Positions 4,115 to 54,589 of a stretch of DNA of 64,000 bases are shown one piece after another. The translations under genes and the position numbers were made by a program. The DNA is from Chiloscyllium plagiosum. Lineage: Eukaryota. The number at the start of each line of letters is the position of its first letter. Position 1 is the first letter of the stretch. The stretch is taken from contig NC_057718.1 of assembly GCF_004010195.1 (NCBI RefSeq), forward strand, positions 87,044,139 to 87,108,138, written 5' to 3'. Under the pieces are notes generated by a model. The model searched no databases and was not told the origin of the DNA. It saw nothing but the letters and a program-made list of their open reading frames with translations.

Positions 4115-4291
4115 TTTGTAGATCAGTTATCTCTCGACGCTTCAGGCTCTCTGCCTTTATTCCTGATGAAGGGCTTTTTGCCCGAAACGTCGATTTTGCT
4201 TGTCCTCGGATGCCGCCTGAATTGCTGTGGTCTTCCAGCACCACTGATCCAGAATCTGGTTTCCAGCATCTGCAGTCATTGTTTTTACCTC
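4115..4291 (+). mobile_element. Penelope-type 3' tail fragment with hammerhead motif
   Basis: TTC-CTGATGA-A-GGGC-TTTTT-GCCC-GAAAC-GTC at 4160-4191, followed by the recurrent GATGCyGCCTGA...CCAGCATCTGCAGTC tail. Confidence 0.8.
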
Positions 4292-4379
4292 ATTAAATCT
4301 ATACCTGCTAGTTCTTGTTCCTTTATACAACTGGGGCCAGTTTTTCCATGTCACCTCTTTTCAGTCCGCTCAGGGGTTT

Positions 4380-6400
4380 GAAACCCTTTATCAAATCTCT
4401 TCTTAGTCATTTTGTCTCAAAGGAGAACAGTCCCAACTTCTTCAATCTGTCTTCATAACTGAGGTTTCTCATCCCTGGAACCATTCTTATAAACCACTTC
4501 TGCACTTCCTCCAATGTATTCATATCCTTCCTATAATGTGGCACCCAGAACTGTTCACAATACTCTACCTGAGTTTTCTAAACATGACTAGTAAACCAGG
4601 GATGGATCTCTCTTGCTATTTTTTTCATGGAACCTATTTGTATTGAAAATTTTGAACCATTTCTTTAAATGTTTCCCACTGTTTAGTTAATGCCAAACAT
4701 TTTAATCTATTTACACAAACAATCTTAGACAGCTTCCCTCCTTCATAATCACGCTTTGGCTTTACTTAAGTTTGGGATTCTTGTTTTGGACTTGAGAATG
4801 TTGCTCTCAAACTTGACAAGGAAGTCTGTTGTATAATGTTTACGCTTATTGAGCTGATATTTTACTGTGAGATTACTAATTAAGTCTGCCTCATTATCCA
4901 ATACTCTATGTAAAATAGCTTTGAGCTAGTTGGCTTAACACATTCAGTTCCAGCAAACTGTTACGAACACAGTCTACAAGCACAAGTTCCAGACTACCTT
5001 TGTCAATTTGATTTTGTTTGTTGATGTGAAGGTTGAAGTCTCCCATGTTTATTACATTGTCTTTATTAAAATCTCCAATATTGTTTTGCTTGGTATTCTG
5101 CCTAACAGAAAACTTCTATTAGAAGCATTATGGAAATATAGAAAATAGGGGCAGAAGTAGGATATTTAGTCCTGGTCTTCCAGTCAGTGTGGTTATGACT
5201 GATCAGTCAATTCAGTGTAATGTTTTTGCTTTCTTCCCATACCCTTTGATTCGTTTAGTCCTAAGAACTATATCTAACTCCTTCTTATAAACATTAAATG
5301 TTTTGGCCTCAACCACTTCCCTCAGACACCTGGTTGAAGAAATGTCTCCTTCTTTCAGTCCTAAATGGTCTACCCTGGAACCGTAAGTTATGACCTTGGT
5401 TCTGGATTCCCAATCATTAGAAACATCCTTCCTGTGTTTACCTGTCTAGTCCTGTTAGAATTTTATGGATTTCTATGAGATCATCCTCATTCTTCTAAAC
5501 TCCAGTAAACATAATCCTAACCGATTACAGTCTCTCTTTATATGTCAGTCCTGCCGTCCCAAGAATCAGTCTAGTGATCAGCACTCCCTCTGTTGCCAGA
5601 ACATCCTTCCTCAGATAAATTAAAACCAAAATTACACATGATTCTCCAGGTTTAGTCTCATCAAGGCCCTATGCAATTGCAAGACATTTCTGATCTTGTA
5701 TTCAAATTCTCTCACGAGGAAAGCCAACATACCATTTCCCATCTTCATTGCCTAATGCACCTGCAAGCTTACGTTCAGCAACTGGTGTACAAGGATACCC
5801 ATCCTCCCTTTCACAATCTATCACTATTCAAATAGTAGTCTACCTTTCTGATTTTGTTAACAAAGTGAAAAATCTCACTGTCATTCACATTACGCTTCAT
5901 CTGCCATACATTTGCCCACTCAGTCAACTTGTCCAAATCACACTGAAGTATCTCTGCAATCCACACTCAGTTCACCCTCCCATCTAACTATGTGTCATTT
6001 GCAAACTTGGAAATATTATATTTAGTTCCCTTCTCTAAATTATTAATACTATCAACTAATCCCATCAAACATCTTAAACCCTTCTTTTTCCCAATCTTCA
6101 CACAAACTGATTCTATTTCCTGAGCTTCTGAGCCAAGATCCATACTTACCACTTTTCTTATATTACCTTTTATTATCAGGACCATTCCTCCTTTTCCACC
6201 TTTTTGAAATGTTAGGGAAGCTGGAATATATATTTCTAAACTTCAGTCAACATGGAATCATGTCTCTTTAATGGCAATCAGTTCAACTCATTTATGTATG
6301 TTTGTTTGCAAGTTCATCTATTTTGTTATACCTGTTTGGCACTTTCAAATAAAATTCTTTAATTTTATTTTTATTACCACAATTCTTTACAAGGACTTAT
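4380..6400 (-). mobile_element. Cluster of decayed CR1 LINE fragments
   Basis: Peptide remnants INNLEKGTKYNISKFANDT (RT) and ESVCVKIGKKKG..LMGLV (endonuclease); CR1-type 3'UTR near 5130-5350. Confidence 0.75.
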
Positions 6401-6524
6401 TTGCTTATGCTTGACAACATTTTATACCTTTATACTTTAACAGCTGCACACATCTGCCTGTACACAGTGGTGCTTCTTGATATGTTCCCAAACAGTACAA
6501 TTTACCTTTGACATTTTTTTCCAG

Positions 6525-6706
6525 ATCTGAGCAGTCTGAGAGAATCTGGTCCTTTCTGAAGACACTTCTCCCAGAGTTCACTTTTGCAAATGAGGAACCT
6601 GTTGTGGCCAAAGTGCCTTCAACAGAATCAATACAAAAAATTGGGAAGGAAAATGAAGATATTGTGGAAGTTGTCAGCAGCAAACCAATTGAAAAAGTAA
6701 GCAAAG
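6525..6706 (+). CDS. ADGB: Androglobin coding exon (SEQSERIWSFLKTLLPEFTFANEEP...EKVSK), phase 2-1
   Basis: ttttttccag acceptor, AAG|gtaaag donor; similar to ADGB DKVWELLKEILPEFKL; frame continuous with neighbours. Confidence 0.92.
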
Positions 6707-9091
6707 GTAAAGTCATTGTATTTCTTTTCAAGCTTATAAGTTGCCACTTGAATTAGTCTGCTGATGCATTGTAACATTACCTGTTTCTGAATATGCTTCA
6801 TCTCCTCTTTTGAGATCCTTATTCATGACTTTGTTATCTCAAGTTGCAACTATTGAAATTCTCTCCTGGTTGACCTGTCGCATATTCTGTAAACTTGAAC
6901 TTATCTAAAACTCTGCGGCCTATATCAAGCATATTTGCATCAAGCACCAATTACTTGTCACTTCTGTGCTCGCTGACAGAGATCAGTTCCTAGTGCAGCA
7001 GCATCTTGTTCTCATGTTCAAATCCCCACAACGGGTTGAATTGTATACTGTTTCACCAGCAGGTTTGATGGCAAAGGATCTTCCAAAAAATCCAGCCTTT
7101 TCTTGCCTGCCACTATCTGAAATTTCACGAAAGACAATGGAACGTTGGATGGCTCACCGCTGTTGGTCCTATAGATGCCCTTCACAGAAGACCTCATGCT
7201 ACCCACTTCACTATTTTACCTACAGCAAGTCATTGGCCCAACTACTTTAAGCTGTTATCAGGCAAAGGGGAATGAATAACTCCCTTATGGGCCATGAGAA
7301 GCACATTATGTTCCCAATACCCTATTTGTTCTTTACCATCCTGATAGAACTCTCAAATACATGCCCCCTCTCTCTCTTAGACACCTCCTTCACACTCTTT
7401 CTCAGAGTTCTACCAGTCTGACCCCACCTATATGCCAGGCTTACCTCTCATTGCTCTCAAGGGTCCTCTTTTTCATGTACCACATATGGTCATGGCAGTG
7501 GCTAAGAATCAAACCTGTTGCTGTTGGGACTACAGAGCTGTCAGCCATCTGATTGACCAGCAGCTCTTTAAATCAGGACTCCCCGCCAAGATTCAAATGG
7601 AATTCTTACCTTGAAGAGATTAATGCTATTCCTAGTGATAAACTGCTAATGGGTGACCATCAGGATAGCAGGTGAGCTGTCTACTCCCTGATATTTCAGA
7701 CAAGGGGAATAGGGGAATGGAGATCACAGTGCCCCATGAAATTCAGCCTTATCTATCTTTCTAACCTCGAGCAGCCTTAGATATCCCAGCTTCCATCTCC
7801 TATCAAGATCTCTGCATTCCTCCAATTCTCGTTTCTTCTGCATCCCCAGTTTTTATTGTTTCACATTGGATGCCAGTCTTTCATACTGTATGTGGGTTGT
7901 TGTTAAACATTGTCACATTACATTTCTGTGTAGTGTCTTGGAATGATTTTGTTACATTGAAGCCACTCTATAAATGCAGAAGATTGTTGATATTTGTATA
8001 TTCATAGTTTTATTGTTTGTACTTGTAGTGCTGTGACACACACACACAAACACATGCTCGCATTCACAATGTTCAAATGTAATTGCACCCTTTTTATTCC
8101 TTAGCTCCGGTAAAATTGAACCCTCTGAGATATCCTCTTTCTCCAGCACTACAATGTTCTTTTTAATCAATACCGGCATGAGATCAAATATGTTCTCCTT
8201 AACATTCTTGACCTTATCCTCACCAGTCTGTCTGCCAAAAGATGCATCTGTCTGTGACAGTATCGCCAGGAGGAACGAGTGCATACTCCTTGTCGACTCA
8301 AAGTCCTTTCTTCACATTGAGAATATCTTCCATCGTGTTGTGTAATGCTATCACTCTGTTAAATGACTTCAAACAAATCTAACAACTCAAGGTTGGGCAC
8401 CTATAAGATTCTGTGGGCCATCAGCAGTAGCAGAATAGTACTCAAAAAACAATCTGCAAGAAAAAATAGATGTGATGAGTCTGAAAGGCTTGCTCATGCA
8501 TACCTTATAAGTTTATAAGGATCGGAGTACAATGTTGTATCCCAGAGTGCTACATGTGCAAAGTACCTTAGCTTTACTATTTTCATGAGGTTATTGAATT
8601 TCTTGCTGCACTGCAAAGGAGTCCTGGAACTCAAAGAAGTGGCTATCATGATCACAACCAACTCCGTCCACACCCATACGACTGCATTCTTGGAGGTTCT
8701 CTATTTCCCTTTTGACCCAACTAACTTATCCTAATTGTTCTCGATCTCTGTCAGGAGGGTATGCAGGTTGGTTCCATGAAGTTTGTTGCTAGGTTCTTCA
8801 ATCTGGCTCCAGTCCTTCTCTCTCAAGTTGGACTCCTTCCTCTAGTGCTGCTATTATCCTCATCTATGTAGCAAAGATTTTATATTCACCTCCTGGACCA
8901 GAACTATACCACTCTTGTTTGTCTTTCTTCTAGCCCCATGACTAACAGTCCATTCAGGGCATGTTTTCAGTGTATCTGCAGTCTCATCATGTATCTGTGT
9001 GCACTGTCTTGATTTACAATAAAATGGACAGTTTGGTGAACAGGAATAAAGTATGTATGCACTTTCAGTAACTTGCTAATTTGTTTTCCAG

Positions 9092-9220
9092 AAAAAGCAG
9101 AATCAAAAGATATTGGGAAGAAAAAGAATAAGGAAGCTGAATACAATAAAGATAAAAGCAGAACACTGATTCAACGACCACAGTCTGTCTCTCAAAGTGT
9201 TTCACAAATTCTTACAGAGA
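9092..9220 (+). CDS. ADGB: Androglobin coding exon (EKAESKDIGKKKNKEAEYNKDKSRTLIQRPQSVSQSVSQILTE), phase 1-1
   Basis: ttttccag acceptor, GA|gtaagt donor; similar to ADGB EKADARDIGKKRSKD; 129 bp, open frame. Confidence 0.9.
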
Positions 9221-9597
9221 GTAAGTTATAGACCTGGTGACTGAGCGATGGGTGAGCTCTTCCAATTTTTGCTCTTGATCTGTCAGCTCTGCATTTCCTT
9301 GTTGGGATTACTAGGAGTCACTTTATCAACAACTTTTAATGTAGCAACGCTATCTCCTCCTGTATTAACAGCAGTAGGTGAGAAATTCAACAAAATAACT
9401 GATTAATAAAAATGCTTCACCGCAGGCATTAATTTTGATTTTTTGTTAGAGTGAAAATAGTACCAGTAGATAATAATCTAGGTTCATTTGGCTTTTTGTT
9501 AGTCATTGTATACTTTTATTTCACATGAGTCTATTTGAATTCAATGCTATCTGTTTCTTTAAAAAGTTTGTATACTCGGGCAATGTTTTTATGTTAA

Positions 9598-9723
9598 TAA
9601 AGCAAAGAACTGTAGATGCCAGAGAGCTGAAATTAAAAAAAACAGAAATTGCTGGAGAAACTCAGAAACCAATTCTGAAGAATGGTCACTGGACTCGAAA
9701 CGTTAGCTCTGTTTTCAGCAATT
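9598..9723. mobile_element. Short inverted Penelope-tail remnant with + strand hammerhead-like core
   Basis: Minus tail 9598-9665, then TT-CTGAAGA-ATGGTC-ACTG-GACTC-GAAACGTTA at 9673-9705. Confidence 0.65.
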
Positions 9724-9760
9724 CATGTTTTTGAATGTTTTTATGTTCTCTGTGCTGCAG

Positions 9761-9855
9761 GTCTTCCTCCACCAGTGATGCCACGGATGATGATCTATGC
9801 TACCTACTTCCCACTACAGCTGTCGGAAAGGAAGATTTCTTTACTTGGGCAAATG
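9761..9855 (+). CDS. ADGB: Androglobin coding exon (SLPPPVMPRMMIYATYFPLQLSERKISLLGQM), phase 1-0
   Basis: tgctgcag acceptor, ATG|gtagta donor; similar to ADGB HMVVYATFTPLYLFENKIFSLEKM. Confidence 0.92.
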
Positions 9856-10376
9856 GTAGTATAAGTTGCACGTGCTGTTTTACAAGACGTTTATGTGACT
9901 TCTATTCCTGATTGCTGCTTTGGTAATAAAACTACAGTTCAAGTGATTTAAAAGAAGGAACTTGCAGTCAGTTAACTTTCTTGACCTCACAACATACCAA
10001 AGTCCTTGACAGCCATTTTAATATTTTTGAAGTGTCTTCGCTGTTGTAATGTAGCTAACGTGACAGCCAATTTGGACACCAGAAGCTATCATTATCAGCA
10101 ATGTTAGCAGCCTCTGCTAAGTGCAAAAGACTTGTGAACCTTGTTTTTGTTGCAGTCATTTACTTTTTCTGCTGCTGAATTAATGCCTCATTATCCATCT
10201 GATTGCATGCTTGATATCTTTTGGTCCTAAAGAAGATTCTTAAACATCACAAAAAAAAGGTGTGTTTCAGGCCTGATATTGATAGGATAAATGGATTAAA
10301 GGTAATTCATTAAATAAACTGTGAGAAATATTTAATGAAATAACTGAATATTTAATTCCAAAATACATGTTGTAAT

Positions 10377-10725
10377 GGGTGGCTCAGTAGCTCAGTGTTT
10401 AGCACTGCTGCCTTACAGCACCAGGGCCCCAGGATCAATTCCAGCCTTGGACAGCTATCTGCGTGGAGCTTGCACATTACCCCCATGGCTGCACAGGTTT
10501 CTGACCAGTGCTCTGGTTTCATCCCATAATCCAAAGATGTGCAGATAAAGTGGATTGGCCATGCTAAATTGCCCCATAGTATCCAGGATACTGCAGGTTG
10601 GTTAAATGCAGGGTTACAAGGATAGAATGGGGAACGGGGTCTGGGCACAATGCTTTTCGGAGAGTTTGTGTGGACTCAATGGGCCAAATGGCCTCTTTTT
10701 GCACTGTAGGGATTCTGTGACTCTC
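10377..10725 (+). mobile_element. HE1-like V-SINE (tRNA-derived)
   Basis: tRNA-like head GTAGCTCAGTG..TAGCACTGCTGCC, V-domain GTGGAGCTTGCACATT..CCC, CR1-like tail. Confidence 0.88.
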
Positions 10726-11103
10726 TGGTAATATTATGAAGAATAAAACTAAAAGTTAAGGATTGGGGGTGATTTTTGGACATTTGCAAATAATTAATTA
10801 TAAAATCCTCGTGTAAAATATAGGAATAATCTAACATGCAATATGAAAACAAATTAAAAGAGATTTTATGAATATATTATAAGGAAAATAACTAAGTTAA
10901 ACCATTGGTTCCTTAGAGATAGTTACATGAGAAGTTATCATGGGGAATGAGAAAGTGACAGAAATTTTGTGTCCACTCCTTTTTGCTTGTTTATTGAGAA
11001 AATCATACACATGAATTGTCAAAGTCTGTACCATACATAACCATACCCATTTCATGCTTTGTCTTGTTTCAGTGACTTTATATGGTTCTTCTGCAAATTT
11101 CAG

Positions 11104-11278
11104 GCTGATTCCTCAGAGAAGTTGCGACACTATGGACTTTCTCATGCGCATAGCCACCCAGTAATGGTTACTAGGACTAGGTCGTGTCCCCTCATAAACC
11201 CTCCAGAAACAACACCAGTTCCACGATGGAAGCTCATCCGACCACGAAATCGTGCTCTTCCAATAGCTGATCCAAAAG
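11104..11278 (+). CDS. ADGB: Androglobin coding exon (ADSSEKLRHYGLSHAHSHPVMVTRTRSCPLINPPETTPVPRWKLIRPRNRALPIADPK), phase 0-1
   Basis: tttcag acceptor, AAG|gtattt donor; diagnostic match to ADGB ADSAEKLREYGLSHICSHPVLVTRSRSCPL...PPWKLIR. Confidence 0.96.
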
Positions 11279-12248
11279 GTATTTTTATTTTAAGTTTGAC
11301 AATTGTTATGATCCACAAGAGGATCCTAAAACCAAAACAACTAAATTTAGTGAATGATCCCCAAATAAAGAAATCACTACCAAGGTTTTAAGTTTTGTAA
11401 GTATTGAACCTGAAAAGTGCTAGTCAGTCTCAAATTGCACTGGAAAGGCAAGATATCTCAACTATTTGAACAGTTGGTTAAGCAAGCCATTTTATGCTGC
11501 TTTTATGCAGTGGCTATGCAATGGAATCACAAAAAGCCAGTGCCCAAGTTCAGCAGGGAATAGGGAAGGCAAGTAAAATATTGGCCTTTATTTCAAAGGG
11601 AATGGGGTATAAAAAGTAGAGAGATTTTACTAAAATTCTGTCTTATACAAGCAGGACATTGCTGTCAATCCAAAGCATTGTTCTACCTATAACACAAGTG
11701 AACCATGAATTCCAACGTCAGTGTGATGCCAGCATGCTGTCTGTAGGTTCCAGCAATTGGCTGATGAACTCAAAAAGCATGTTACTTATGTAGTGTGCTA
11801 TAAACAGAGGAGCACAGTGGTAGTACCCCTATATCTAAGTCAGAAGACCTGGACTCGAGTCCCACAAGCTCCAGAAATGTGTAATAACCTCTCTGACCAG
11901 GTTGATTAGAAAATATCTACAGGCTGTACTCAATTAGTCCCATTTGCAAAACCCAAAACCCAAAACAAAATGTCTGCTTTTAGATGTAATCCCATGACTG
12001 TGCAGCACTTGCTGAACAACCTGATTATGCTAATACAAGCAACTAATTTAATAGCATCACTTGAGCTCACAATATGGCTCACTGGAAGTATCAGACATTC
12101 ATGTACAGGGACCCATTTTTCTGAAAACAAAAGACTGTTAAAGCCTTGGCTTGGAGAAGCAATAGTACCCTATCACCATCATTATGGCAAGGCCTTGGCC
12201 AATCAATCAACTTAACAACCAGTCAGCAGCCTTTTATCCTGAAGTATA

Positions 12249-12422
12249 CAGAAGAACCTCGACTATCCGAAGGACATAGGTGGACAGTATTTCGTCCGGT
12301 TATTCGAATTCCGGATAATGGAATGCCAGATAACATAGTTTAGCCAAGCATCGGGACCTTGTGATCTTGCCAGATAATTCAAAATTCGGATAATCGAATG
12401 CCAGATAATCAAGGTTCCTCTG
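12249..12422. mobile_element. Tc1/mariner-superfamily (Tigger/pogo-like) MITE
   Basis: TIRs CAGAAGAACCTCGACTATC / GATAATCAAGGTTCCTCTG flanked by TA on both sides; decayed relative at about 34377-34515. Confidence 0.8.
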
Positions 12423-14129
12423 TAAATTGCTGTGTTCATTTAAAATTTGGCATTTTTTTCATTTGCAAGTGCAAAAATGTGAAACTTTAGCAATCTGTCT
12501 ATTTTTTCCAACTATGTTTAATTTCTTTACTCCCAACTGACTGTTCACACATTGCTCCTTGCTGACTTTCAATTTGCAGAATTACTCCCTGAAGATTCTG
12601 AGCAAAAATGACTTTCTGCTGAGAGTTCTTCTCCCCATTTTCTGTCTCATCCTTCTTTCAGCACCTTGTTTGCTTCATGTGGGTTATGCCCATCCTGTCA
12701 GTTACGTTGTATGCAAAGTGAATACCTCTGTTAGTTTACCCATGTCTTAAAAGAAACTGATTTGTGCAGATTCCTTTAAGTCTGCAACAAGTTGTTCAGT
12801 GTCTGCCACTACAGATGCTTGCAACATGAAAAAGTTGTGCAAAGCACAAATATAGCCACAGCTAATAGAAACCAATCAACATGACCTTCATAAGTCATCA
12901 ATCTCCTTCAGAGGCCCTGTTGCAGTCCTTCCTGCATTTGAATGTGTGTCCAGCTGTACAATATTAACAAAAGGTGCCAGCTGGAGCACTGAGTTCCAGA
13001 GTAGCAATGCCAGCATCAAATAAGTGTTATATACGGATTGGTGTCATGATCTTTATACCCAGCATACTTCTGTTGAATTTTAGCTGCATGCCATCAAAAT
13101 GACAATTAGGAAAGCAAGGAGGAGCTACAAAATGAACATATTAACCAATATAACATTCAACAGTAAATTATACTACAGGTGCATGAATAATAAAAGAAAA
13201 AGCAGATTATGGAGAGGGTCACTGAGGATACATAAGACAGACTTGCAAGCAATTTTGAATGGTTACTTTACCTCAATATTAATCAGGAAGACAAAGTGAA
13301 CATGGCATTCTATGAAATGATCAAAGAGGTTAAAACTAATTTTTTTCTTCTTTATTGCTTTTTGATATTTCGGTATTCCCACCCCTAGTTTCTCTAGTAC
13401 AACTACATGGCTAGCTTTGCCAGTTAAGTGTCAATTTCGGTTTGTTTTAGAATCTTGTTATCACAGACAAGATTAAAAAAAAATTAATCACCAAAAAAAT
13501 TAATAAACTGTTTTAGGTTTTCCTAACAATCATGTGCTTTCATGATAACTTTTAATGATTTTTTTTAATCTCCAGAATTTTAAAAGTAATACAAATTCAG
13601 AAATGCTGTAGTGGTATTTGAAATCACGAGTATAAACCCAGTAACATTATTGCAATATAACCATACCAATACTTGTTCCTACATTATTCAAAACTACTGT
13701 TAAGATTGCTCTGTGGTTCTCCACTACTTTCTCCAGGATAATTTTGGCTGCTGTGTAGCAGTTTATTATACAGTAGGAATGGGTTCTTTTCTCACTTTAA
13801 TACGTTGCATGGACAATGATGAGAGTGAACTGAAACTCCAGTTCCGCTCCCAGACTCATCAACAGTGTGTTTTTGAAAAGATGGGTTTCTAAACCCCTGA
13901 GTGTGCGATCAATATTACCTACCAGCAGTAGGATTTTATTTGTTTACAGAGGTTTATTCATTCCCATGTTCACCCCACTCACACAGACTCAAGAAACATG
14001 CTGTTAAAAGGGATGGTGCCCTTTTCCAATTTAGAAACAAAGGAATACATATAATTCATGTGATTGATGCAGGCAAGGGGAAGAAGAGGTTATAGCTGGA
14101 TGAATTCAATATCTAAAGTTGTATATCAA

Positions 14130-14490
14130 AAGGTTTAAAGTAAAAAGGAAAATGGAGATGTGAGAGGCAATTTTTTTAAACAGAGTGTGGAGAGTGCCTG
14201 GAATGCACTGCCAGAGGAGGTGATAGACGTAGATACCAGCTCAACATTTAAGAGGCATCTTGACAGATACATTACTAAGCAGGGAATAGAGGGTTACAGA
14301 CCACATGGAGGCGAAAGGTTTTTAGTTTAGAAAGGTATCCTGAAGAAGGGCTAATGCCCGAAACGTCGATTCTCCTGTTCCCTAGATGCTGCCTGACCTG
14401 CTGCGCTTTTCCAGCAACACATTTCCATCATGTGTCAGCACTGGCTTGGTGGGCCAAAAGGCCTGTTCTATCATGTACTGTTCTTTGTTA
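14130..14490 (+). mobile_element. CR1 LINE 3' end, interrupted by a hammerhead-bearing insert
   Basis: CR1 C-terminal remnant (…RVWRVPGMHCQ/ WNALPEEVI..…FKRHLDRY) and 3'UTR. Confidence 0.8.
14338..14429 (+). ncRNA. Minimal type I hammerhead ribozyme motif + Penelope tail (young copy)
   Basis: ATC-CTGAAGA-A-GGGC-TAAT-GCCC-GAAAC-GTC-GAT; 92 bp identical to 22921-23012. Confidence 0.72.
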
Positions 14491-15308
14491 TCACAGGATT
14501 CCTCTGAAGAGGTCAATTTTTAGCAGGTCATAAAGTTAGTTGTGTGCATCTTCTTATGAGGAGGTCAGTTTTCTGAACTGATGGACTTGAAAATGGCCAA
14601 ACTTGGAGATTTAACAAAATGGCAGTCTTCTGTTTTATGGCATTGATGTTGTTGCCTTTGCTGCTGATGCTGTTTCCTGTTGTATTGTGTGCAGACTGAC
14701 TGGTTATCCCGTATGCTAATAATAACTAAGACTGGTTGTTTGAAGTCATTTTTGATTGGGTGGCCAATACTTCAATTGTCCACCCAGAATGATTTGAAGT
14801 TCAGGACATTGCTGCATAACAGGGTGAGGGATGGTGGCCATTCTCACTTCCTTATGTTTTAATTGGCTCCTTTACAGTTGCCTTTGTTACATTTTGAGTT
14901 CAGACACAGTGAGTCCTAGGAATCCATAGATTTTGAGTTCTGGATAAGAGCACAAATGCTTTTGTCTTGGTCTGTCCACTCAATGGAAGCACTGCACCCA
15001 TGATAGTTCAGCTAGTCATTCTGAGTTTCTGCGTAAATTGCAAAAGAGACCTGATCTGCTGCAGCCATTTTGGCAGCCTTTTAAAATCCATCTAAAAAAG
15101 AAAAAGGCAGTTCCAAAAACAGTCTATTTTTAAAGTTATGAAAATATAATGCCTTTACTGAACATTTGATACATGGAAATCTAATTTCTGGACCAGATTG
15201 CCACAACTTTTGGCCAAATCATTTTCAAACATTTTCTCTCACTAGTCAAGACCTCCTCTTCAACCATCTGATAGAAGTAACAGACTAAATACTTCTTCTT
15301 CTCGGCAG

Positions 15309-15399
15309 AGACCAAAGTAAAGAAACCTGATCAATTTATTGAAATCTCAAGCCCATTGGTTAACTACAAGATAGACACTACAATCATGCCACCAGAGAG
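15309..15399 (+). CDS. ADGB: Androglobin coding exon (ETKVKKPDQFIEISSPLVNYKIDTTIMPPER), phase 1-2
   Basis: ttcttctcggcag acceptor, GAG|gtgagt donor; similar to ADGB VKKPERFLEISSPFLNYR. Confidence 0.94.
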
Positions 15400-42094: not shown

Positions 42095-42570
42095 GCCTAT
42101 TTGATTCACTCCACACGATATCAGGAAAAAGCTGAAGGCACTGATACTGCAAAGGCTTTGGGCCCTGACAATATTCCAGCAATGTGTAATGAAGACTTAT
42201 GCTCCAGAGCTTACCGTACACCTAGCCAAGCTGTTCTATTACAGCTACAACACTGGCATCTACCCAACAATGTGGAAAGTTGCTCCAGGATGTCCTGTAC
42301 ACAAAAGGCAGGACAAATCCATCCAGGTTAATAACTGCCCCAGCAGTCTATTCTCAGCCATCATTAAAATGTTGGAATGAGTCATCAACAGTGCTATCAA
42401 GCAGCATTTGCCTAGCCAATGAACTGCTTGCTGACCCTCAATTTGAGTTCTGAAATGGTCTGCCAGCTCCTGACCTCATTACAGTCTTGATAAAAAAGCT
42501 GGACTCCAGAAGTGAAGTGACAAAAGATTTCATTTGCCTGAGTGCAGCATCAAGGTTCTCTAGTAAACTT
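42095..42570 (+). mobile_element. CR1/L2-group LINE RT fragment
   Basis: AKALGPDNIPA / KTYAPELTVHLAKLFYYSYNTGIYPTMWKVA. Confidence 0.8.
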
Positions 42571-44107: not shown

Positions 44108-44600
44108 TGCAGGACTTATACACTTAATCGTAAGGTCCTGAGGTGTGTTGCTGAGCAAAGAGACCTTGGAGTTCAGGTGAATAGTTCCTTGAAGTAGAGT
44201 TGCAGGTAATAGGATAGTAAAGAAGCAGGAGTATGAGGAGTATGGATAGGGTAAATAGACAAAGTCTTTACCCCAGGGTATGGGAGTCCAAACCTAGAGG
44301 GCATAGAGTCATACTCATAGAGTCATAGAAATGTACAGCGTGGAAACAGACCCTTCGGTCCAACCCGTCCATGCCGACCAGATATCTCAACCCAATCTAG
44401 TCCCACCTGCCAGCACCTGGCCCATATCCCTCCAAACCTTTCCTATTCATCCAAATGCCTCTTAAATGTTGCAATTATACCAGCCTCCAACACTTTGTCT
44501 GGCAGCTCATTGGGTGAGAGGGGAAAGATTTAAAAGGGATCTAAGGGGCAACTGTTTCACACAGCAGGTGGTGCGTGTATGGAATGAGCAGCCAGAGAAA
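44108..44600 (+). mobile_element. CR1 3' fragment containing an oppositely oriented CR1 3' end (about 44306-44511)
   Basis: ESKPRGH|...GERFKRDLRGNCFTQQVVRVWNE split by a minus-strand tail ATAGAGTCATAGAAATGTACAGC. Confidence 0.8.
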
Positions 44601-44629
44601 GTGGGGATGGGAGCATAGGTAATGAGCAT

Positions 44630-45440
44630 GGAGGATGGTGTTCATTTTCTGAAACTTTTAAACTCAATGTTGAGTTCCGAAAACTGTAAGGTACTTAGGC
44701 AGAAGATAAGGAGTTGTTCCTCAGGCTTGCATTGGGCTTCATTGGAGCACTAGAGCAGGTCTGAGACAGAAATGGGAACAAGGTGGAATAACAGGCAACA
44801 GGAAACTTGGGGTCAATTTACAGACAGACAGTAGGTGTTCCATATAGCAGTCATCGCGTCTGTATTTCGCTTCACTTGTATAGAGCGGACCACATTGTGA
44901 GCAGTGAATGCAGTTGACTAGATTGAGTGAAATACTAGTAAATCATTGCTTGGAAGGTGTGCTTGAGGCCTTGGTTGGTGAGGATGGAGGAGGTAAATGG
45001 ACAAGTGTTACGCCTTTGGCGATTAAATGGGAAGGTGCTGTGGATGTGTGGGGTGGTGTTAGGAATGGACGAGGAATGGACTGAGGGAATAGTCCCTGTG
45101 GAATGCTGACAAGTGAAGAAAGGGCAATATGTGTCTTGTGGTGGCATCCCAATGGAGATGGTGGAAATGCTGTCTTCTGATCCTTTGGATGCGGAGGCTG
45201 GTGAGGTAGAAAGTGAGGATCGGACAGACCCTATCATAGCTGTGGGAGAGGAGAAAAGGGTGGGGGCAGAAGTGCAGGAAATAGATCAACATGGCTGAGG
45301 GCCCTGTCCACCACAAAGATAGGGAATCCTCAGCTGACTAAGGGAAGAGATTTCTGAGGCCCCCCATTGTGGAAGATCAGATACGATGGAGACCGAGAAG
45401 CTAAAAGAATGGAATTAAATCATTACAGGAAGCAAGTTGT
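44630..45440 (-). mobile_element. Penelope-like element RT C-terminus/GIY-YIG fragment, decayed
   Basis: DRVCPILTFYLTSLRIQRIRRQHFHHL.WDATTRHI; CPFTSSILTNQGLKHTFQ; HCSQCGPLY. Confidence 0.75.
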
Positions 45441-45948
45441 TTAGTCAAGGCTGTTTCTATTTTTGGTCTTTACTTCTAAACCTATGATATCTCTGTGGAA
45501 CTGTGTTGTCTTCATGTCTGTCTTTGATTAAGTGGATATTGTTTAAATTTGAATTGTAGCTTATTTGTTAACCATTTTTGCAGTTGCTTACAATTAGTTT
45601 TCAGTTAATTGAAAAAGACTGATGGACATTTATTTTACTCTGGATGTTAGTACAAAAAGGAGACAAATTGATCATTTTGGTGATTCAGTAAAAGAAATAT
45701 ATTTCTGATACAATCCATAGAATAGTAATGGGACTTGGTTACTAATGCAATCCCCCAGCAGGATCATATTAAGGATTTTACATTGGAACTCAGGGACACC
45801 TAGAAATCGCATGCTGCTGCCAGATAAATCTGTTCACAACAACACATAGAATCTAAACAGGATGTGTCTTATAGATCTTAGCTGATTTTGTAGCACTCAT
45901 TCACTTTTGCTTACTTGAAGGCTGCTAGTCTCTTACTTTTCTGTTTAG

Positions 45949-46122
45949 CACAAAGAAGCAGCTAACTTGTCACGATTGGGAGCACTGAACAGTCAAGAAA
46001 GTGCACTTGTTACTATACAGCACCATACTTCATCAATGCTTCACCTACAGCATATGCCAGCAGTTTACCTAGTAAACATACTACATCTGCTTCAGACAAA
46101 TGGTCATGTCCGAAAGTCAAAA
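45949..46122 (+). CDS. ADGB: Candidate androglobin linker exon (HKEAANLSRLGALNSQES...GHVRKSK), phase 0-0
   Basis: ctcttacttttctgtttag acceptor, AAA|gtaagc donor, 174 bp stop-free in phase 0; no homology support. Confidence 0.5.
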
Positions 46123-46227
46123 GTAAGCAGTTCTTAGTGGGGTCAAGGGAGACTTTGGTCAGTCAGTAGGTACCACCAAAGTCAGTCAAGTGGCTTATCA
46201 GTTCCAGTCCAGGGGTTGGCCATGGTT

Positions 46228-46352
46228 CATCAGGGCTTATGTCCAAAACATCAAATCTCCTGCTTCTCAGATGCTTCCTGACCTGCTGTGCTTTTCCAGC
46301 ACCACACTCTCAACTCTGATCTCCAGCATCTGCAGTTCTCACTTTCTCCTAG
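46228..46352 (+). mobile_element. Degenerate Penelope tail with TSD-like flanks
   Basis: GGGCTTATGTCC-AAAACATC then the standard tail; TTGGCCAT(G/A)GTT on both sides. Confidence 0.7.
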
Positions 46353-47782
46353 TTTGGCCATAGTTAGTTCTGTAGTTTAAGTGCAATCCATCTGGGGATT
46401 ACAGGTACATCAGTTGGAGTACTCTGGAGACATTAATCTCATGGGAGCAGGTGGGACATTTTTCCTGCAATGAAACAAAGGGAAAGATTAAGTATTCTGG
46501 AAGTGGATGGACAAGCAGTTAGTGGTGATGAAGGAGCAGGAGAGATGTTGAGGTATTTCTGAGTGACTAGGAAGCACAGAGGGCAGGAAGGGTTAATTGT
46601 TTGGGAGGATAAGGTGATTGAGATTCATTGAGTGAACCCAATATATGCAATGGTGAGAGCTGTAGTCTTGGTGTGATAAGTTCAAGTGAGTGTTGAACCT
46701 ACAAAGTTGAGATAGTGGAGAGAAGATAGGCACACTTATCAATGCAGAAGCACAGAAGATTATTGACCTTTTGCATTGCAAGGCAATCCTTTATATCAGG
46801 ACTTAGCACTGATCCAGGTTGCTATCTGGATCCAAACTGTCTGAGTCTGGTGGTGTAGCATCCTTTGACGGTCAACAGGAGAAAGGACTGCCCTCCTCTC
46901 CACCACCACATCCACCAGTACCTTCCAGGTTTCTGGGATTGAGATTTGTTTTCTGAACTGTGTCCTCAGTGATAATGGTGGAGAGCAGTTCCTGCTTGCA
47001 GCAAATCAAATGATGTGCAGCTGGGCTTTACATATGACATCACAAGTATGAATGGTGGAAGATCCCGCAGCGGTAAGAATTTCCACTAGTCCTGCTGTAC
47101 AATCGCATAACAGGATACTGAAGAGCCCAGTTCTGTAATAATAAGGTGAAGAGTGGACAATTGTGTGAGAAAAGCCTCTCCGAGCCAGGATGGATCAGAG
47201 GTCATGAGTATCATTTAATAAAATACTTGAACTGAAAATGAGAAAATTCAGATTGTGTCGAATAGCATATGCTATGATTTCCTGTCACTCTCTTCTCCAT
47301 CGGGATGACAGTTTCTCAAAGGAACAGGAAGGTTAATTCTCTTTGAAAGAGGGTCAGATATATGGTGAACTATCTGGTGGTTGTTGAGAACCATAAAGCC
47401 AATTGGGTTCCAATATGGTTCTTGGGTTATGTAAAACCTGACAATCCAATCATGTAACTTAACGAACACAGCATATTTTCTGCTGATATTTGTTTGCAGC
47501 AGACTTATTTTGTACAAGTTCCTCAATCCAAGCTTATTAAATTTCTATTATGAATCAGAATTTTTGAACAATCAGCACCAACATTTTGACAGCTACATGC
47601 ACATTGATCGGGAAATTAATTAAGTGCTCAGGGATATTTTATTACATTAAAGGTGATATATAAATGACTGTTGTATGTGGATCACAAGGCCTTGCAGTGT
47701 TTGTTTTTATGTAGCCAATGCAAAGGAATAAAAGATTGACACACTCCTGACATGAAACATAATGTTTCTTGTCAATTGAAAG

Positions 47783-47860
47783 AAAATGGTTTTCCAAGGT
47801 GATGCAGCCAACAACACGTCACGCTTTCTGGAATCGCCAGCTGAAAACACCTTTCCTTTA
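47783..47860 (+). CDS. ADGB: Candidate androglobin linker exon (KMVFQGDAANNTSRFLESPAENTFPL), phase 0-0
   Basis: 78 bp open, CpG-containing, followed by a 79-nt GT-AG interval; both splice sites are weak (gaaag| and TTA|gtaaaa). Confidence 0.42.
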
Positions 47861-47939
47861 GTAAAACTCCCAGCTTGTAGATATATTTTTGTATATCATC
47901 CTTCTGACTGTGCATTTTGCTTTGTTTTTGTTTTGACAG

Positions 47940-47985
47940 GAAGATACTTTGTATGTTCGACCCCCACTGGAGAGTTTAATTGAAG
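47940..47985 (+). CDS. ADGB: Androglobin linker exon (EDTLYVRPPLESLIE+G), phase 0-1
   Basis: Strong T-rich ttttgacag acceptor and AAG|gtgagt donor; supplies the 0->1 phase change needed to join exon 61683. Confidence 0.82.
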
Positions 47986-48333
47986 GTGAGTTACCACACA
48001 GAACAGAGTTTTGTGAGTAGGATATCAGAATATAAGGTTGAGACAAGCAACTGAAAAGTAAGCTATTATCCTTGTCATTATTCTCATGGCACTTATAAGT
48101 GATCTTGGTAAGGAGGAGTTGCTTAATCTTCTTGGTGTTTAGTTTAATTATTAAATAACTGAATAATGGAATTTTCTGCTCGTTGAGTGATTCTTTCATT
48201 ATATCGTTAATAATGGCTTCTTATTCTTTGAAATAGCCAATTGAATCTTGTGTCCAATGTTTTAAAAAAGATGCAATATGTAGGGATGGTATTGTGCTCC
48301 CTTGTGCAAATCATAAAATTCTTAATGATTTGA

Positions 48334-48647
48334 AGATTAGATTAGATTACCTTCAGTGTGGAAACAGGCCCTTCGGCCCAACTAGTCCACACCAACCCTC
48401 CAAAGAGTAACCCACCCAGACCCATTTCCCCTCTGACTAATGCACCTAACACTATGGGAAATTTAGCATGACCAATTCACCTAACTTGCACACCTTTGGA
48501 CTGGAGGAGGAAACTGGAGCACCCAGAGTAAACCCACACAGACACGGGGAGAATGTGCAAACTCCACACAGACAATTGCCTGAAGCTGGAATTGAACCTG
48601 GGACCCTGGTGCTGTGAGGCAGCAGTGCTAACCACTGTGCCACCCAA
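48334..48647 (-). mobile_element. HE1-like V-SINE
   Basis: Full head, V-domain and (TTAGA)n tail. Confidence 0.92.
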
Positions 48648-49539
48648 TGTTGAGCTGGGGTGTACAAAGTTAAAAATCACACAACACCAGGTTATTGTCC
48701 AACAGGTTTATCTGGAAGCACTAACTTTTAGAGCACTGCTCTTTCATCAGACGGTTGTCATGCTCAATTCTTCAAGTGCGCAACAGAAGCTGTTTGACTA
48801 ATATTGTCTTCCAACTGGAACTGTCAACTGCAATCCTATTACCATTTCCTTTTCCCAATTGCAGAATCATAGACATTACATGGATGTTATTTTCTCTGTT
48901 CTGTACATCAATGTATCTTTGAGCTCTGAAATAGCTGCTACTCAATCACTATCTGTCACCAAATAATTAGGACAACTCTTGGCAGCATATAGTTGTGAGT
49001 ATTATGTGACAAGCCTGCAGCTCAGTCTCTTCATTTACTTTTGCTGTCCCCTAACATTCAGTGGTTTTCCTTTTAAACAGTTTCTTCAAGACTGCAGGTT
49101 TTCTTGATGGTAATTTCCAACTTCCTTTTCCTCTCTAAAGTCATTATAAGTTCGTTCAAACAGTTTCTACCATAGAATTGAAAAATGGATGTTACCAAAC
49201 TTACAGATTACATGCAATGGAACTGTGACTACAATAAATTACCTCTCCTCATCCTAAATTACCTCTCTCCTCCATTATCCAGCTGGGATATCCTTACCTG
49301 GTCTCATTCCTATCTATCCTGTTATTGCTAAAGAGTATTCCATAATGCAAATTTTTCTTGCTCCTGCATCATTATGTCTGGAATCAGCCAAGAATTGGCT
49401 GCCTCAATCTACCATTGCCAACTTTGTCTTCAGCTGTTGAGGTCCTAAGTTCTGGAATTACCACTACTCCTCTGTGCTGCTTAAAACCTAAGTTTTCAAC
49501 CAAATATTTAATGTTATTCTATTGAAGCATTTTGAAGTT

Positions 49540-49724
49540 TTAGATTAGATTCCTTACAGTGTGGAAACAGGCCCTTTGGCCCAACAAGTCCACACTGACC
49601 CTCCGAAGAGTAACCCACCCAGACCCATTTCCCTCTGACTAATGCAACTAACACTATGGGCAATCTAGCATGGCCAATTCACCTGACCTGCACGTCTTTT
49701 GGACTGTGAGAGGAAACCGGAGCA
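49540..49724 (-). mobile_element. HE1-like V-SINE, 5'-truncated
   Basis: Tail and part of V-domain only. Confidence 0.88.
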
Positions 49725-51569
49725 GGGATGATGCAATGTAGGTGTAGGTTGGTTTTGAGGAACATCATATTCTATTTCCCTCTTTTAAACCGATCTGAAT
49801 GTTCCATGCCTGGTTCTCTGTCCTAGCAAATTACTGCCCTCTCTCCAGTCTCCATTTCAAGGAGAATGTTTCTGTTTATTGAATGTTTTTCAAGAAAGTG
49901 ACTCACTACTAACTCTCAATGATAGTTAGAGTTGAGCAATAAATGCTGTCCTTCTTGTGACTCCCACATCTTAACGTCATTGCCTGTAATCAATCTGCTG
50001 CTAAAATACTTACTCACACCTTTGACTATTCCAATGCTCTTCTGATTCCAAATCTCTTGCTCACCAATTCTCCAAATTCTGTAAATTTTAAATTATTTCT
50101 AAACTGCTTTTTCTCCTTCTACCTGTGTCACTACATTGGCTCATGTAAGCTGGATAACTCTGATTTAAAATTTCCAATCTCTCCTTCAGTCCTATACATC
50201 CACCCCACCCTGCAACCCAAACCCCAGAATGCTCTATTACTGAAACTCTGGCATCTTCTGCATCCCCATTTCCTGGTCCCTTGGGACTCACCTTAAAACC
50301 GATCTCTTTGACCATATATTTGGCATTTCTAGCATTGTCTTTGGTTGACCATTCATTTTGTCTGATTGCATCTTTTGATGTTTTTCTGATTAAAGGTGCC
50401 ATAAAATTGCAAGTTGTTTTCAATAAACAATCTGTCATACCAGGTAGCAAAAGTCAGCATAGATTATAAATATGTTGCATGAAAACAATGGCAGTTAATT
50501 GCTGAGCCTCTGTGGCATCATGTGTAATATAGTGTCACTCCCACCTTCTTGACTTCACTGATATCATGTTGCTAAACTGCTTCTAAACTTATTAATATCA
50601 TTCCTTATTACAGGTGGAACTACTTATTCTAATTTCTTATCTGTAAATACATGGGCACTTTATGAACTTTAAGCTTTTTCTCTCAGCCACTTCACGTCAA
50701 GCACTTTCATAAATCACTTGCCTTTACTTCATAATAAATCAGTATCATGTCGGTTTTTATCATGCCTGTATGAGAGGCTTTTCAGGGCTTTCTCATGAAC
50801 ACTTGCTGCATATCTTCATGTTTTACTTAGAATTCTACAGTTTTCTCCTCATTCCTACACAGGTACACAAATTTACTTTGCCATGTTCATCATTACCACC
50901 TCTTCACATTTGTCCTTTGTCCTTTGCTTATGCATGCATTCTCCAGAAGAAGCTATTTGCCACAACTCACATTAATAGATTAAAGAGAATCTGCTAAATT
51001 GAGCTTTCCGAATCATCGTCTTTCCACCAATTAGCAAATTTCCTCACATTTACCTGGATTTATGATGGGTTTATTTCTTGTTCTGGTTGAATGTCTGTTT
51101 AACCAATCCATTATCGATGCTCAGCTCTGTGTGTGTGTTTTTGCTAATTAAATCTCCCATCACAGAGTTCGAGAGAGTATAATTTTTAACGATTAGTTGG
51201 AAATCAAAACATTTAACTTATGTCCCCTTCAAAAGATGAAATCATATAATTTGAAGGATATTTAAAGATGAGCTGGAAGTGTCATGATTTTAATCCAGAG
51301 AATCTTTAAGTGGTATATCGACACCGTTACACTGGGTACTGTATAATCCCACATTACCTGAACATGACTAAGTCCATTCTGATGGAATTGTAAGTTTGTA
51401 AAGCATAGTCAGCTGATTATTCATCTATTGCTATTTTCTGGGCGTATGAGCCATACAAAAATTGATTGCTGCAGTGACTGCTATAGACAGTGTTGACCAT
51501 ACTTCAGGAACAGTCAGAGACTGAGCATACCTTGAAAGATAAGCCCTTGGAAGGTCCGATGCAATGACT

Positions 51570-52000
51570 ATGTGGTAGTGAATCAACTCCACAGAAGCCA
51601 GTACGCTGTCACCAAATCACCCTTTATTTACACATGAAAAGTCCTTAACTCTAGTACTGCCTCTTCAGAGTCAGCTATTAGATTGCCAGGATCTCTGAAA
51701 CACCTCTTTTTGTCATCTTTAAAAGAGACAAAACTGAAACTTCAGAGACAGCTCAGGTTGTGGGGCATAGGCTCCTGTAGGACGTATAGGAGCCTGGGGC
51801 CAATGTGAAATTCCACCTGAGCACAGGTACGCGCAGACGAGTTTCCACCACACATCTGAGTATCCTCCAACTGGTGCGCAGTGTCGGATCCAAGCACCGC
51901 CATCTCAAGGCAGTAAATGACAATGGCCATGAACCGGATGTCCACCACCACCCTGTGCCACTCCTCTTTTTATCTGTCAGCCAGGGCTCCTTGATTGAAC
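51570..52000 (-). mobile_element. LTR of Gypsy element A, interrupted by a probable L1/Tx1 fragment (about 51740-51955)
   Basis: ACTCCACAGA.GC..GTA...TCACCC.TTATT.ACACATGAAAAGTCCTT shared with 56600-56760; insert encodes EFHIGPR...PMPHNLS. Confidence 0.6.
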
Positions 52001-52001
52001 T

Positions 52002-53300
52002 TGTTATTGACCAGGGAAAACATTTCAAGAAGGAAGCCCAGACCTTAACTTTGAGTTGTTTTGAGCAAGTGGAAAGTAGATATTCCAGGACTGATGTGGC
52101 TGGTCAAAAACACTTGGTCTCAAACAAAACAGCATTTATTTACAGAGTACTGAATGAAACACAAACAAAAAAGAGAAACGAATACAGAATAACTCAGCCT
52201 ATCTGAAAACCCAAACCTCTCTAAGGGCATCATAGGTTTGCTCTATTTTTAATGCCCTTATCCACCTATCAACATTACTTTGTTTAATTGTTTCAAACTT
52301 AATGTAGGTTGACCAGGTTCCCTCCTTTGATTCCTGAAACATTGTCTGTTGGCTTCTGACACAAGCTCATATGCATTTAAGATGTCTGTCTTCACCTCCT
52401 CATACACCCCAGATACCTCCTCTAACAGTGATGCAAATACCTCACTAGCTCGACCTACAAGTTTTTTTTGGATCAACAACACCCACATGGTCACCCAAAG
52501 GTGCATTTGTTTAGCCACCTTTTCAAAATGAGATGAAAAAGTTGTCTACATCCTTCTCATCAAGTTTAGGCAATGCTTGAATATATTTAAACAGATTTTC
52601 ATTAGGCCTTTTGCTACCATGGGTTTGCTCATCCTCACTCTCTTCCTCACTAAGCTTACCTTCAGCCTTCATCTCCATCCTTTTAAACTGACTTTCCTCT
52701 TTAAGTGCGAATTTCTGCCAATTTCAAACTCCTTCTTTCTTCCTTTCCTCTCTCTCCCTTTCTCTCTCTTTCTCTCTCTCTCTCTCCCCCTTTTCTTCCT
52801 ACTGAAGCAATTCATTCTTTTTCTCTTTCCACTGCTTTTAATCCTAATTCAAACAGTTTCATTTCTGTTGCCCTTTCCTTATCTTTTGCCTGTAGCTCAA
52901 GTTGCTTCATTATAATTGAATTTTAACCATCTCCAAAGATTCTGATGGCAATTCCAGCAAATTTAAATACTGAGTGATTGCTGTAATTATCTAATCTTTC
53001 CTCACGGAAAGAGGCAGCTCCAACTCCAGATTGTCTGCAAAGTCCAGCAGCTTGGACTTATTTACCTTTTGTAAAACCCCCAAGTCATTTCTTCCATCCC
53101 CAGAAAACTTGTGGTGACTGAAAGAGCCATTGCTATCCTAAGCACTGTTTAAACTAACCGAAATCAACATCCAGAACAAAGGACTCTTAATACCTACCAC
53201 ACACTGCCTTCAAGTCAAACAGCCCTAACCCCAAATCGGAGCTATGGAACAAATCCCACAAAGAGCGTCAATCTGTTATGGACCAGGCCACACCTCCTGG
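52002..53300 (-). mobile_element. Gypsy element B (Gmr1/SCAN-type gag), LTR fragments + decayed gag
   Basis: KLVGRASEVFASL..EVSGVYEEVKTDILNAYELVSEANRQCFRN; LTR pieces at 52002-52225 and from 53274 (TGTTATGGACCAGG) match the solo LTR at 58012. Confidence 0.82.
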
Positions 53301-53349
53301 AGTCTCTGCGTTTATGTCCCCTCTGAGAACAAAACCCAACAACAACATA

Positions 53350-54580
53350 GCTGAAAATGTGTTGCTGGAAAAGCGCAGCAGGTCAGGCAGCATCCAAGGA
53401 ACAGGAGAATCGACGTTTTGGGCATAAGCCCTTCTTCAGGAATGAGGAAAGTGTGTCCAGCAGGCTAAGATAAAAGGTAGGGAGGAGGGACTTGGGGGAG
53501 GGGCGTTGGAAATGCGATAGGTGGANNNNNNNNNNNNNNNNNNNNNNNNNNNNNNNNNNNNNNNNNNNNNNNNNNNNNNNNNNNNNNNNNNNNNNNNNNN
53601 NNNNNNNNNNNNNNNNNNNNNNNNNNNNNNNNNNNNNNNNNNNNNNNNNNNNNNNNNNNNNNNNNNNNNNNNNNNNNNNNNNNNNNNNNNNNNNNNNNNN
53701 NNNNNNNNNNNNNNNNNNNNNNNNNNNNNNNNNNNNNNNNNNNNNNNNNNNNNNNNNNNNNNNNNNNNNNNNNNNNNNNNNNNNNNNNNNNNNNNNNNNN
53801 NNNNNNNNNNNNNNNNNNNNNNNNNNNNNNNNNNNNNNNNNNNNNNNNNNNNNNNNNNNNNNNNNNNNNNNNNNNNNNNNNNNNNNNNNNNNNNNNNNNN
53901 NNNNNNNNNNNNNNNNNNNNNNNNNNNNNNNNNNNNNNNNNNNNNNNNNNNNNNNNNNNNNNNNNNNNNNNNNNNNNNNNNNNNNNNNNNNNNNNNNNNN
54001 NNNNNNNNNNNNNNNNNNNNNNNNNNNNNNNNNNNNNNNNNNNNNNNNNNNNNNNNNNNNNNNNNNNNNNNNNNNNNNNNNNNNNNNNNNNNNNNNNNNN
54101 NNNNNNNNNNNNNNNNNNNNNNNNNNNNNNNNNNNNNNNNNNNNNNNNNNNNNNNNNNNNNNNNNNNNNNNNNNNNNNNNNNNNNNNNNNNNNNNNNNNN
54201 NNNNNNNNNNNNNNNNNNNNNNNNNNNNNNNNNNNNNNNNNNNNNNNNNNNNNNNNNNNNNNNNNNNNNNNNNNNNNNNNNNNNNNNNNNNNNNNNNNNN
54301 NNNNNNNNNNNNNNNNNNNNNNNNNNNNNNNNNNNNNNNNNNNNNNNNNNNNNNNNNNNNNNNNNNNNACCCTACTCCGACCTATCACCTTCACCTTTAC
54401 CTCTTTCCACCTATCACATTTCCAACTCCCCTCCTCCAAGTCCCTCCTCCCTACCTTTTATCTTCTCCTGCTGAACACTCTCTGCTCATTCCTGAAGAAG
54501 GGCCTGTGCCCGAAACGTCGAATCTCCTGTTCCCTGGATGCTGCCTGACCTGCTGTGCTGTTCCAGCAATAAAGTTTCAA
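53350..54580. mobile_element. Inverted pair of Penelope 3' ends flanking an assembly gap (N 53526-54368)
   Basis: Left arm minus, right arm plus, mutually reverse-complementary; hammerhead motif on each. Confidence 0.8.
54488..54523 (+). ncRNA. Minimal type I hammerhead ribozyme (best-preserved copy)
   Basis: ATTC-CTGAAGA-A-GGGC-CTGT-GCCC-GAAAC-GTC^-GAAT: helix I ATTC/GAAT, helix II GGGC/GCCC, palindromic ACGT helix III, GUC site at 54517-54519. Confidence 0.78.
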
Positions 54581-54589
54581 CAATAACTG

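Follow-up and report, generated by a model that had tools for sequence, protein, structure and literature searches.

Minimal hammerhead motifs of truncated Penelope-like elements in bamboo shark androglobin introns: probable inert passengers

Short hammerhead ribozyme motifs occur repeatedly in the androglobin gene (ADGB) of the bamboo shark Chiloscyllium plagiosum, which raises the question of whether copies within one nascent transcript can pair and cut it. The stretch analyzed, called the window here, comprises 64,000 nucleotides of contig NC_057718.1 (assembly GCF_004010195.1, positions 87,044,139 to 87,108,138, forward strand), and all positions are numbered from its first base. The motifs are read here as hammerheads of the pseudo-long terminal repeats (pLTRs) of truncated Penelope-like elements (PLEs) in ADGB introns; they are very probably inert passengers and leave the pre-mRNA uncut. 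The copies belong to a known class, are young transposon insertions and have ordinary density and orientation.

A hammerhead search had been proposed as a check in a preliminary description of the window. A strict descriptor was used, comprising a CUGANGA box, one extra base, a G-C-closed helix II, GAAA and NUH, together with a self-complementary 15.2-16.2 and a helix I of at least 2 bp. It matched at 4163, 14340, 22923 and 54492 on the plus strand and at 22841 on the minus strand, with no match in 60 first-order Markov resamples of the window. An Rfam scan of the window at E ≤ 5, in contrast, gave no hammerhead family, which is not evidence against the motif because curated models miss such minimal forms. 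The CUGANGA...GAAA cores reported earlier at 4163, 9675, 14340, 22923 and 54492 (+) were all present, but four are intact and one is broken: G10.1-C11.1 is kept in 4 of the 5, while 9675 has U10.1. For the 54492 copy the predicted cut (54519/54520) was the one already proposed. Ten further sites described as minus-strand or decayed were real, seven on the minus and three on the plus strand; 22841(-) is nevertheless intact and 34637(-) near-intact. That list was incomplete, as at least five broken copies (21346-, 33741-, 35800-, 41324- and 46225+) had been missed; counting them, sense copies are not in excess over the window as a whole.

Loop 3 of helix III is lacking from every copy, as had been noted. 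In 1.75 Mb searched without requiring a palindrome, helix III was palindromic in 68 of 88 cores (ACGT 55, AGCT 12), and the other 20 include ATGT (5) and ACAT (4), both CpG-type changes. The earlier view that helix III forms through ACGT only is too narrow, as shown by the GAGC-type family, family C (34637- and 48750-), whose palindrome is AGCT and which therefore could not pair with the ACGT families. Many family-C copies have AATAAA downstream. Family A has a 4-bp helix II (GGGC/GCCC). Helix I is just 2-4 bp in the window copies and covaries between families (TC/GA, AC/GT, CA/TG, TT/AA). By sequence the motifs classify as minimal type-I hammerheads with a loopless palindromic helix III and covarying helices, and the covariation across five families indicates a selected ribozyme in the source elements.

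Coding remnants mark the copies as putative 3' ends (pLTRs) of 5'-truncated PLEs. Family-D copies in the window lie directly 3' of broken GIY-YIG frames. The query for family A was a GIY-YIG fragment bearing a cysteine linker of the Neptune type, as defined in PMC8557442. Of the 150 scored loci listed, 30 were examined; a GIY-YIG motif was recognized by eye and regular expression in 29, and in 20 of these 29 a family-A hammerhead followed 220-490 nt downstream on the same strand. N runs were seen within many of the PLE loci examined. A Pfam scan of the frames neighboring the GIY-YIG frame, with the GIY-YIG-bearing frame itself outside the scan, gave no match. At one locus a fragment resembling reverse transcriptase (RT), which had no Pfam match, lay upstream of a family-A core, and at one family-A locus a CX2-5CxxC linker was found ahead of GIY-YIG. 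Based on the linker, family A is provisionally assigned to the Neptune clade. Across the 3.56 Gb genome, one exact family-A pattern was counted 63,857 times (31,926 forward, 31,931 reverse). The identification as minimal PLE hammerheads needing a partner for helix III is thus supported by the motif layout, the GIY-YIG association and PMC4209133.

Protein mapping placed 12 ADGB coding exons on the plus strand of the window. With 200 kb of flank added, coding sequence could be mapped between -44,400 and 184,385 (window numbering). The exon at 11104-11277 matched androglobin of Chiloscyllium plagiosum at 100% and that of C. punctatum at 98%. A Pfam scan of 16 short frames matched neither androglobin nor GIY-YIG. 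Every hammerhead copy in the window is intronic and so lies inside the ADGB pre-mRNA, as had been stated. The intact sense copies occupy four separate introns, spaced 10.2, 8.6 and 31.6 kb apart. Two plus-strand exons are present in the Chiloscyllium protein and apparently skipped in other protein models, 9093-9221 in that of Scyliorhinus and 36565-36651 in those of Scyliorhinus and Stegostoma; both are apparently alternative or lineage-specific exons of a low-complexity linker. The features are collected in Table 1.

Table 1. Hammerhead copies, host gene and short interspersed elements (SINEs) located in the window
Feature	Position	Strand	Details
Family-A hammerhead, intact	4159..4195	+	5-nt helix II loop; 2-bp helix I; predicted cut after 4191
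Solo PLE stub holding the 4163 core	4147-4291	+	In intron 1883-6524
Family-B hammerhead, decayed	9671..9708	+	U10.1-C11.1 mismatch; within old fold-back 9620-9735
Family-A hammerhead, intact	14336..14372	+	Intron 11278-15307; predicted cut after 14367; solo stub 14338-14431, 5' end 2 nt ahead of core
Single head-to-head PLE insertion	22716..23012	both arms	Identical intact cores 22841(-), long-tailed arm, and 22923(+), short-tailed arm (difference ~35 nt); 15-bp target duplication at 22701-22715 and 23013-23027
Inverted family-A arms around assembly gap 53526-54368 (843 N)	53346..54582	both arms	53439(-) core with G12>A; 54492(+) intact, 4-bp helix I
Family-D PLE 3' ends, head-to-head pair	3270..4034		Decayed hammerheads 3344(-), 3927(+); GIY-YIG coding remnants; 9-bp target duplication
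Family-D PLE 3' end	25300..26135	+	Broken GIY-YIG endonuclease frame, then hammerhead 26077 with GAAA half deleted
Family-B hammerhead stub, decayed	16656..16777	-	Core 16765; A9>G, G16.2>A
Family-C hammerhead, near-intact	34553..34648	-	Core 34637; AGCT palindrome; G.U at 10.1-11.1
Family-C hammerhead, decayed	48664..48758	-	Core 48750
Family-A solo stub	41835..41967	-	Core 41961, broken by three CpG-type changes; 10-bp target duplication
Family-A stub, helix II deleted	33657..33864	-	Core 33741
Family-B stub, decayed	42786..42885	+	
Family-D PLE 3' end with GIY-YIG remnant	41217..41719	-	Hammerhead near 41320, half of helix II missing
ADGB host gene	1797..61837	+	Androglobin protein mapped onto window
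ADGB exons	near 1797, 6525, 9093, 9762, 11104, 15308	+	Protein mapping
ADGB exons	near 16462, 18955, 20645, 36565, 47940, 61680	+	Protein mapping
tRNA-headed SINE	10375-10727, 31533-31865, 32910-33232, 35396-35726, 37856-38211		
tRNA-headed SINE	38871-39220, 39900-40156, 48323-48644, 62079-62379		

An active strand-swapped dimer has a helix III of 4 bp and two helices I of 2-5 bp. Nearest-neighbor energies, which leave out Mg2+ and core tertiary contacts, placed all 10 dimer combinations at +2.7 to +10.2 kcal/mol relative to separate monomers, and the six heterodimers 4.0-8.1 kcal/mol uphill. Helix II of the 4163 copy was mostly unformed in the predicted local fold (P=0.05). In the plus transcript the 22923 core was predicted to be wholly paired to its mirror arm (unpaired probability 0.00; minimum free energy -289.5 kcal/mol). 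The 53439 and 54492 arms gave a predicted duplex of -306 kcal/mol, and the 54492 core is probably masked by this fold-back. These two arms are possibly one insertion; no target duplication was found for the pair and the loops of the two cores differ. Monomers of minimal hammerhead ribozymes (min-HHR) were inactive and dimers weak in PMC4209133. The Anolis PLE hammerhead showed no cleavage without the protein of the element, and no RNA-seq reads ended at its site, in PMC11167929.

According to the preliminary description, sense copies scattered over the introns of a single nascent ADGB transcript could pair in cis and cleave these introns co-transcriptionally. Four intact sense cores within 50 kb share the ACGU palindrome, and the probability of at least 4 intact cores on one given strand is 0.033, a post hoc figure. 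This proposal is nevertheless very unlikely, because the copies lie in separate introns, their dimers are uphill and the Anolis hammerhead needs protein. In addition, 22923 is predicted to be masked, and the stubs, which are flanked by target duplications, are recent insertions rather than conserved elements. The other 165 kb of ADGB has 1 intact sense and 6 antisense cores, giving 5 and 7 over the whole mapped gene. From the density in the strand sample described below, 2.4 intact cores are expected per window (P(≥5)=0.095). The density of intact cores in the window is therefore ordinary, and the sense excess among them is local. Domestication of one copy as an ADGB splicing regulator, as with the intronic hammerhead of amniote RECK, is scarcely conceivable. 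Domesticated intronic hammerheads are known (PMC6155905) and the 9675 copy lies ~55 nt ahead of the coding exon at 9762, but this is the broken copy. The intact copies correspond to subfamily variants found throughout the genome and have no self-sufficient helix III; the canonical monomer-folding helix III of RECK-type domesticated hammerheads is absent from all window copies, which have no loop 3.

Single-cell RNA over 9000-23300 gave 592 reads in one run, of which 97% continue into unlike sequence and are from other repeat copies, and 0 reads in a second run. No pile-up of ends was seen, but depth in the ADGB exon bins was almost nil, so these reads are no test of cleavage. An A>G difference at 22967 in RNA was considered as editing and rejected, as the mirror position varies in DNA contigs.

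Strand bias was assessed in 1.6 Mb inside seven spectrin-repeat genes plus the rest of ADGB, giving 1.69 Mb in eight genes. Genes were oriented by Pfam PF00435 hits; every block had a positive T>A skew on the strand inferred to be sense. Counting intact and broken copies together, family A had 128 sense and 120 antisense copies, against 120:129 for a SINE control, family D 10:12 and family E 9:8. The fraction of intact family-A copies was equal on the two strands (18/88 and 18/83). Sense enrichment and strong purging are both excluded in this sample.

A number of points weigh against complete inertness. Natural PLE dimers are considered to bridge ~3 kb, and both ADGB and PLEs are likely expressed in the germ line, leaving room for help from protein. 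The calculated energies would understate dimer stability, and the 53439/54492 fold-back spans an assembly gap. Intact cores outside the window numbered 25 sense and 39 antisense (p=0.10; 95% confidence interval 27-52% sense), and solo intact cores 10 and 20 (p=0.10; 95% confidence interval 17-53% sense). Families B (23:30) and C (33:45, sense:antisense, any intactness) lean the same way without significance. Non-LTR retrozymes are described as depleted in Xenopus introns (10.64898/2026.07.22.740005). Such leans would fit a reading in which intact solo sense copies sometimes cleave nascent pre-mRNA, by trans pairing with PLE transcripts or further intronic copies or with PLE protein, and are mildly purged genome-wide. 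The paired, self-masked cores numbered 15 sense and 19 antisense; intact potential partners number in the tens of thousands, and the motif is a selected ribozyme.

Neither of the two ratios is significant, however, and family A shows no link between strand and intactness even among solo copies (9/50 and 10/43 intact, p=0.61). The lean is mostly due to family C, with 1 sense and 7 antisense solo intact cores. Broken family-C copies lean antisense too, and the frequent AATAAA of this family is a confound. A cut deep in an intron also need not block splicing. Occasional cleavage with mild purging is thus unlikely, though less so than pairing in cis. Of the earlier suggestion of selection against sense copies, the strong form falls and the mild lean remains; mild selection may act. 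The wider proposal, that tens of thousands of intact hammerheads in shark introns cut nascent RNA when sense and unmasked, through trans pairing with PLE transcripts or with PLE protein in the germ line, with selection favoring antisense or self-masked head-to-head copies and CpG methylation as the fuse, has a similarly small chance of being right. If true, a vertebrate transcriptome would carry a ribozyme load from across the genome.

Decay of the copies is consistent with inert passengers. The family-A core holds three CpGs (C11.1-G12, C15.2-G16.2 and C17-G1.1). In 178 family-A copies the CpG positions were off the majority base in 15-25%, compared to 1-4% for A13, A14, A15.1 and U16.1. A core change was present in 136 of the 178, CpG transitions made up 157 of 330 changes, and 44 copies were broken by CpG transitions alone. 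Because the CpGs fall on positions used for catalysis or for dimer formation, decay by methylation quickly inactivates a copy. The pattern suggests neutral copies disarmed by methylation-driven mutation.

The arrangement of the copies records how they were inserted. Among sense family-A copies (n=119) the partner was head-to-head in 56, tail-to-tail in 13 and direct in 15. One long and one short tail were found in 44 of 48 tight head-to-head units, two rows of which have one arm in common. Two long tails were found in none of the 48, against 10 expected (p=1e-5). This asymmetry suggests that priming at the two break ends uses different start sites. The head-to-head layout of endonuclease-containing (EN+) PLEs with a tail at one end has already been described (PMC3846280, PMC8557442), and a pair of internal reverse-transcription starts, as in the Anolis element (PMC11167929), would account for the two tail lengths.

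The 5' ends of the arms lay within 10 nt of C3 in 49 of 96 cases and at the cut site (+26..+30) in 0 of 96, although about one fifth of the ends are uninformative and subfamily differences upstream may pass for ends near -4 to -8. Over the whole genome, 295 copies start at the first base of the cleavage product and 333 two bases downstream. Ribozyme-cleaved RNA as the main source of the stubs was rejected on both counts. The peak of stub ends is 4 nt before the core, within TCATTCC and often after G; TCATTCC is presumably initiator-like. Five bases before C3, a non-consensus G or A is found in 3,864 and 1,861 copies genome-wide, compared to 676 and 546 one base earlier. A cap-derived G is suggestive only, being confounded by mirror junctions, which account for ~945 of the G-class copies. 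It is tentatively possible, but on balance doubtful, that transcription starts at -4 and that reverse transcription of capped, uncleaved RNA left the stubs as strong-stop-like cDNAs. The peak may alternatively reflect microhomology-driven fold-back at a quasi-palindrome. The tail asymmetry, the 5' ends at the hammerhead 5' edge and the missing excess at the cut site make the stub ends a record of the insertion mechanism.

As inert passengers, the copies would have the following history. In the source element two copies of the motif would form a strand-swapped dimer held together by the 4-nt palindrome, probably helped by the RT-endonuclease protein of the element. Judging from the tail lengths, the copies would be short reverse transcripts primed at either of two internal starts downstream of the hammerhead. 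About half would have been inserted as head-to-head pairs, whose RNA, folded into a predicted long hairpin, would conceal the core whichever strand is transcribed. Solo copies would have no partner within the same intron, and all copies would decay fast through the three core CpGs.

Other features were observed in the window and in ADGB. The last mapped ADGB intron has three intact family-A cores (181834-, 182933- and 183450+, window coordinates); the first two are in tandem 1.1 kb apart, an arrangement allowing a natural dimer on the opposite strand. A core-less family-A fold-back at 27924-28088, with a 7-bp duplication, had a weak mir-5928 score (35 bits, threshold 59), and core-less PLE hairpins can mimic microRNA precursors. 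A full-length U5 small nuclear RNA copy (27130-27244, minus strand, 104 bits, E=1.5e-17) lies antisense in an ADGB intron and is either a gene or a retrocopy. A tRNA-headed SINE of 300-350 bp, probably shark HE1, is present in approximately eleven copies and in both orientations. ADGB introns also hold two minus-strand coding fragments, one of reverse transcriptase (17500-17922, RVT_1, E=3.6e-10) and one of the aspartyl protease of an LTR-type element (55620-55973, E=4.6e-5).

As they most likely stand, the copies are ordinary transposon debris of little matter for ADGB. The ~64,000 exact copies of one family nevertheless form a well-powered dataset on PLE hammerhead action on host pre-mRNA. 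A literature search, with supplements outside its scope, found nothing on shark PLE hammerheads or on an intronic orientation bias of PLE hammerheads.

The closest known system is the min-HHR of metazoan PLEs (Cervera and de la Pena 2014, PMC4209133), with thousands of copies reported in the coelacanth genome and likewise in that of Xenopus. It has the same core, extra nucleotide before helix II, G10.1-C11.1 pair, short helix I and loopless palindromic 15.2-16.2. There too several families occur per genome, mostly as single dispersed motifs on truncated PLEs, with some close pairs on opposite strands. The available part of that paper names no shark, and its copy numbers are ~4,000-9,000, compared to 63,857 of one exact pattern here; family A also differs in its helix II of 4 bp only. 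EN+ PLE units (PMC3846280, PMC8557442) have head-to-head 5'-truncated copies, a target duplication, a palindromic junction and, as here, a 30-40 nt tail at one end only. In contrast, the shark copies are mostly 150-300 bp stubs without coding sequence, and their fold-back center clusters at the hammerhead 5' edge. Poseidon PAc of Anolis carolinensis (Frangieh et al. 2024, PMC11167929) likewise has its hammerhead at the junction of pLTR and open reading frame and a tail defined by two reverse-transcription starts. Its main insertion template is uncleaved RNA, and here no excess of starts at the cut site was found. Family A, however, has a Neptune-type cysteine linker, and the shark elements are known from sequence alone. 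The RECK, CTCL and DTNB hammerheads of amniotes (PMC6155905) and those of non-LTR retrozymes (10.64898/2026.07.22.740005) are type-I too, located in introns or derived from PLE ends. The amniote motifs are canonical and conserved and the retrozymes form tandem arrays, whereas the shark copies are loopless, young and dispersed, and Tandem Repeats Finder gave 4 short arrays in the window, none at a hammerhead.

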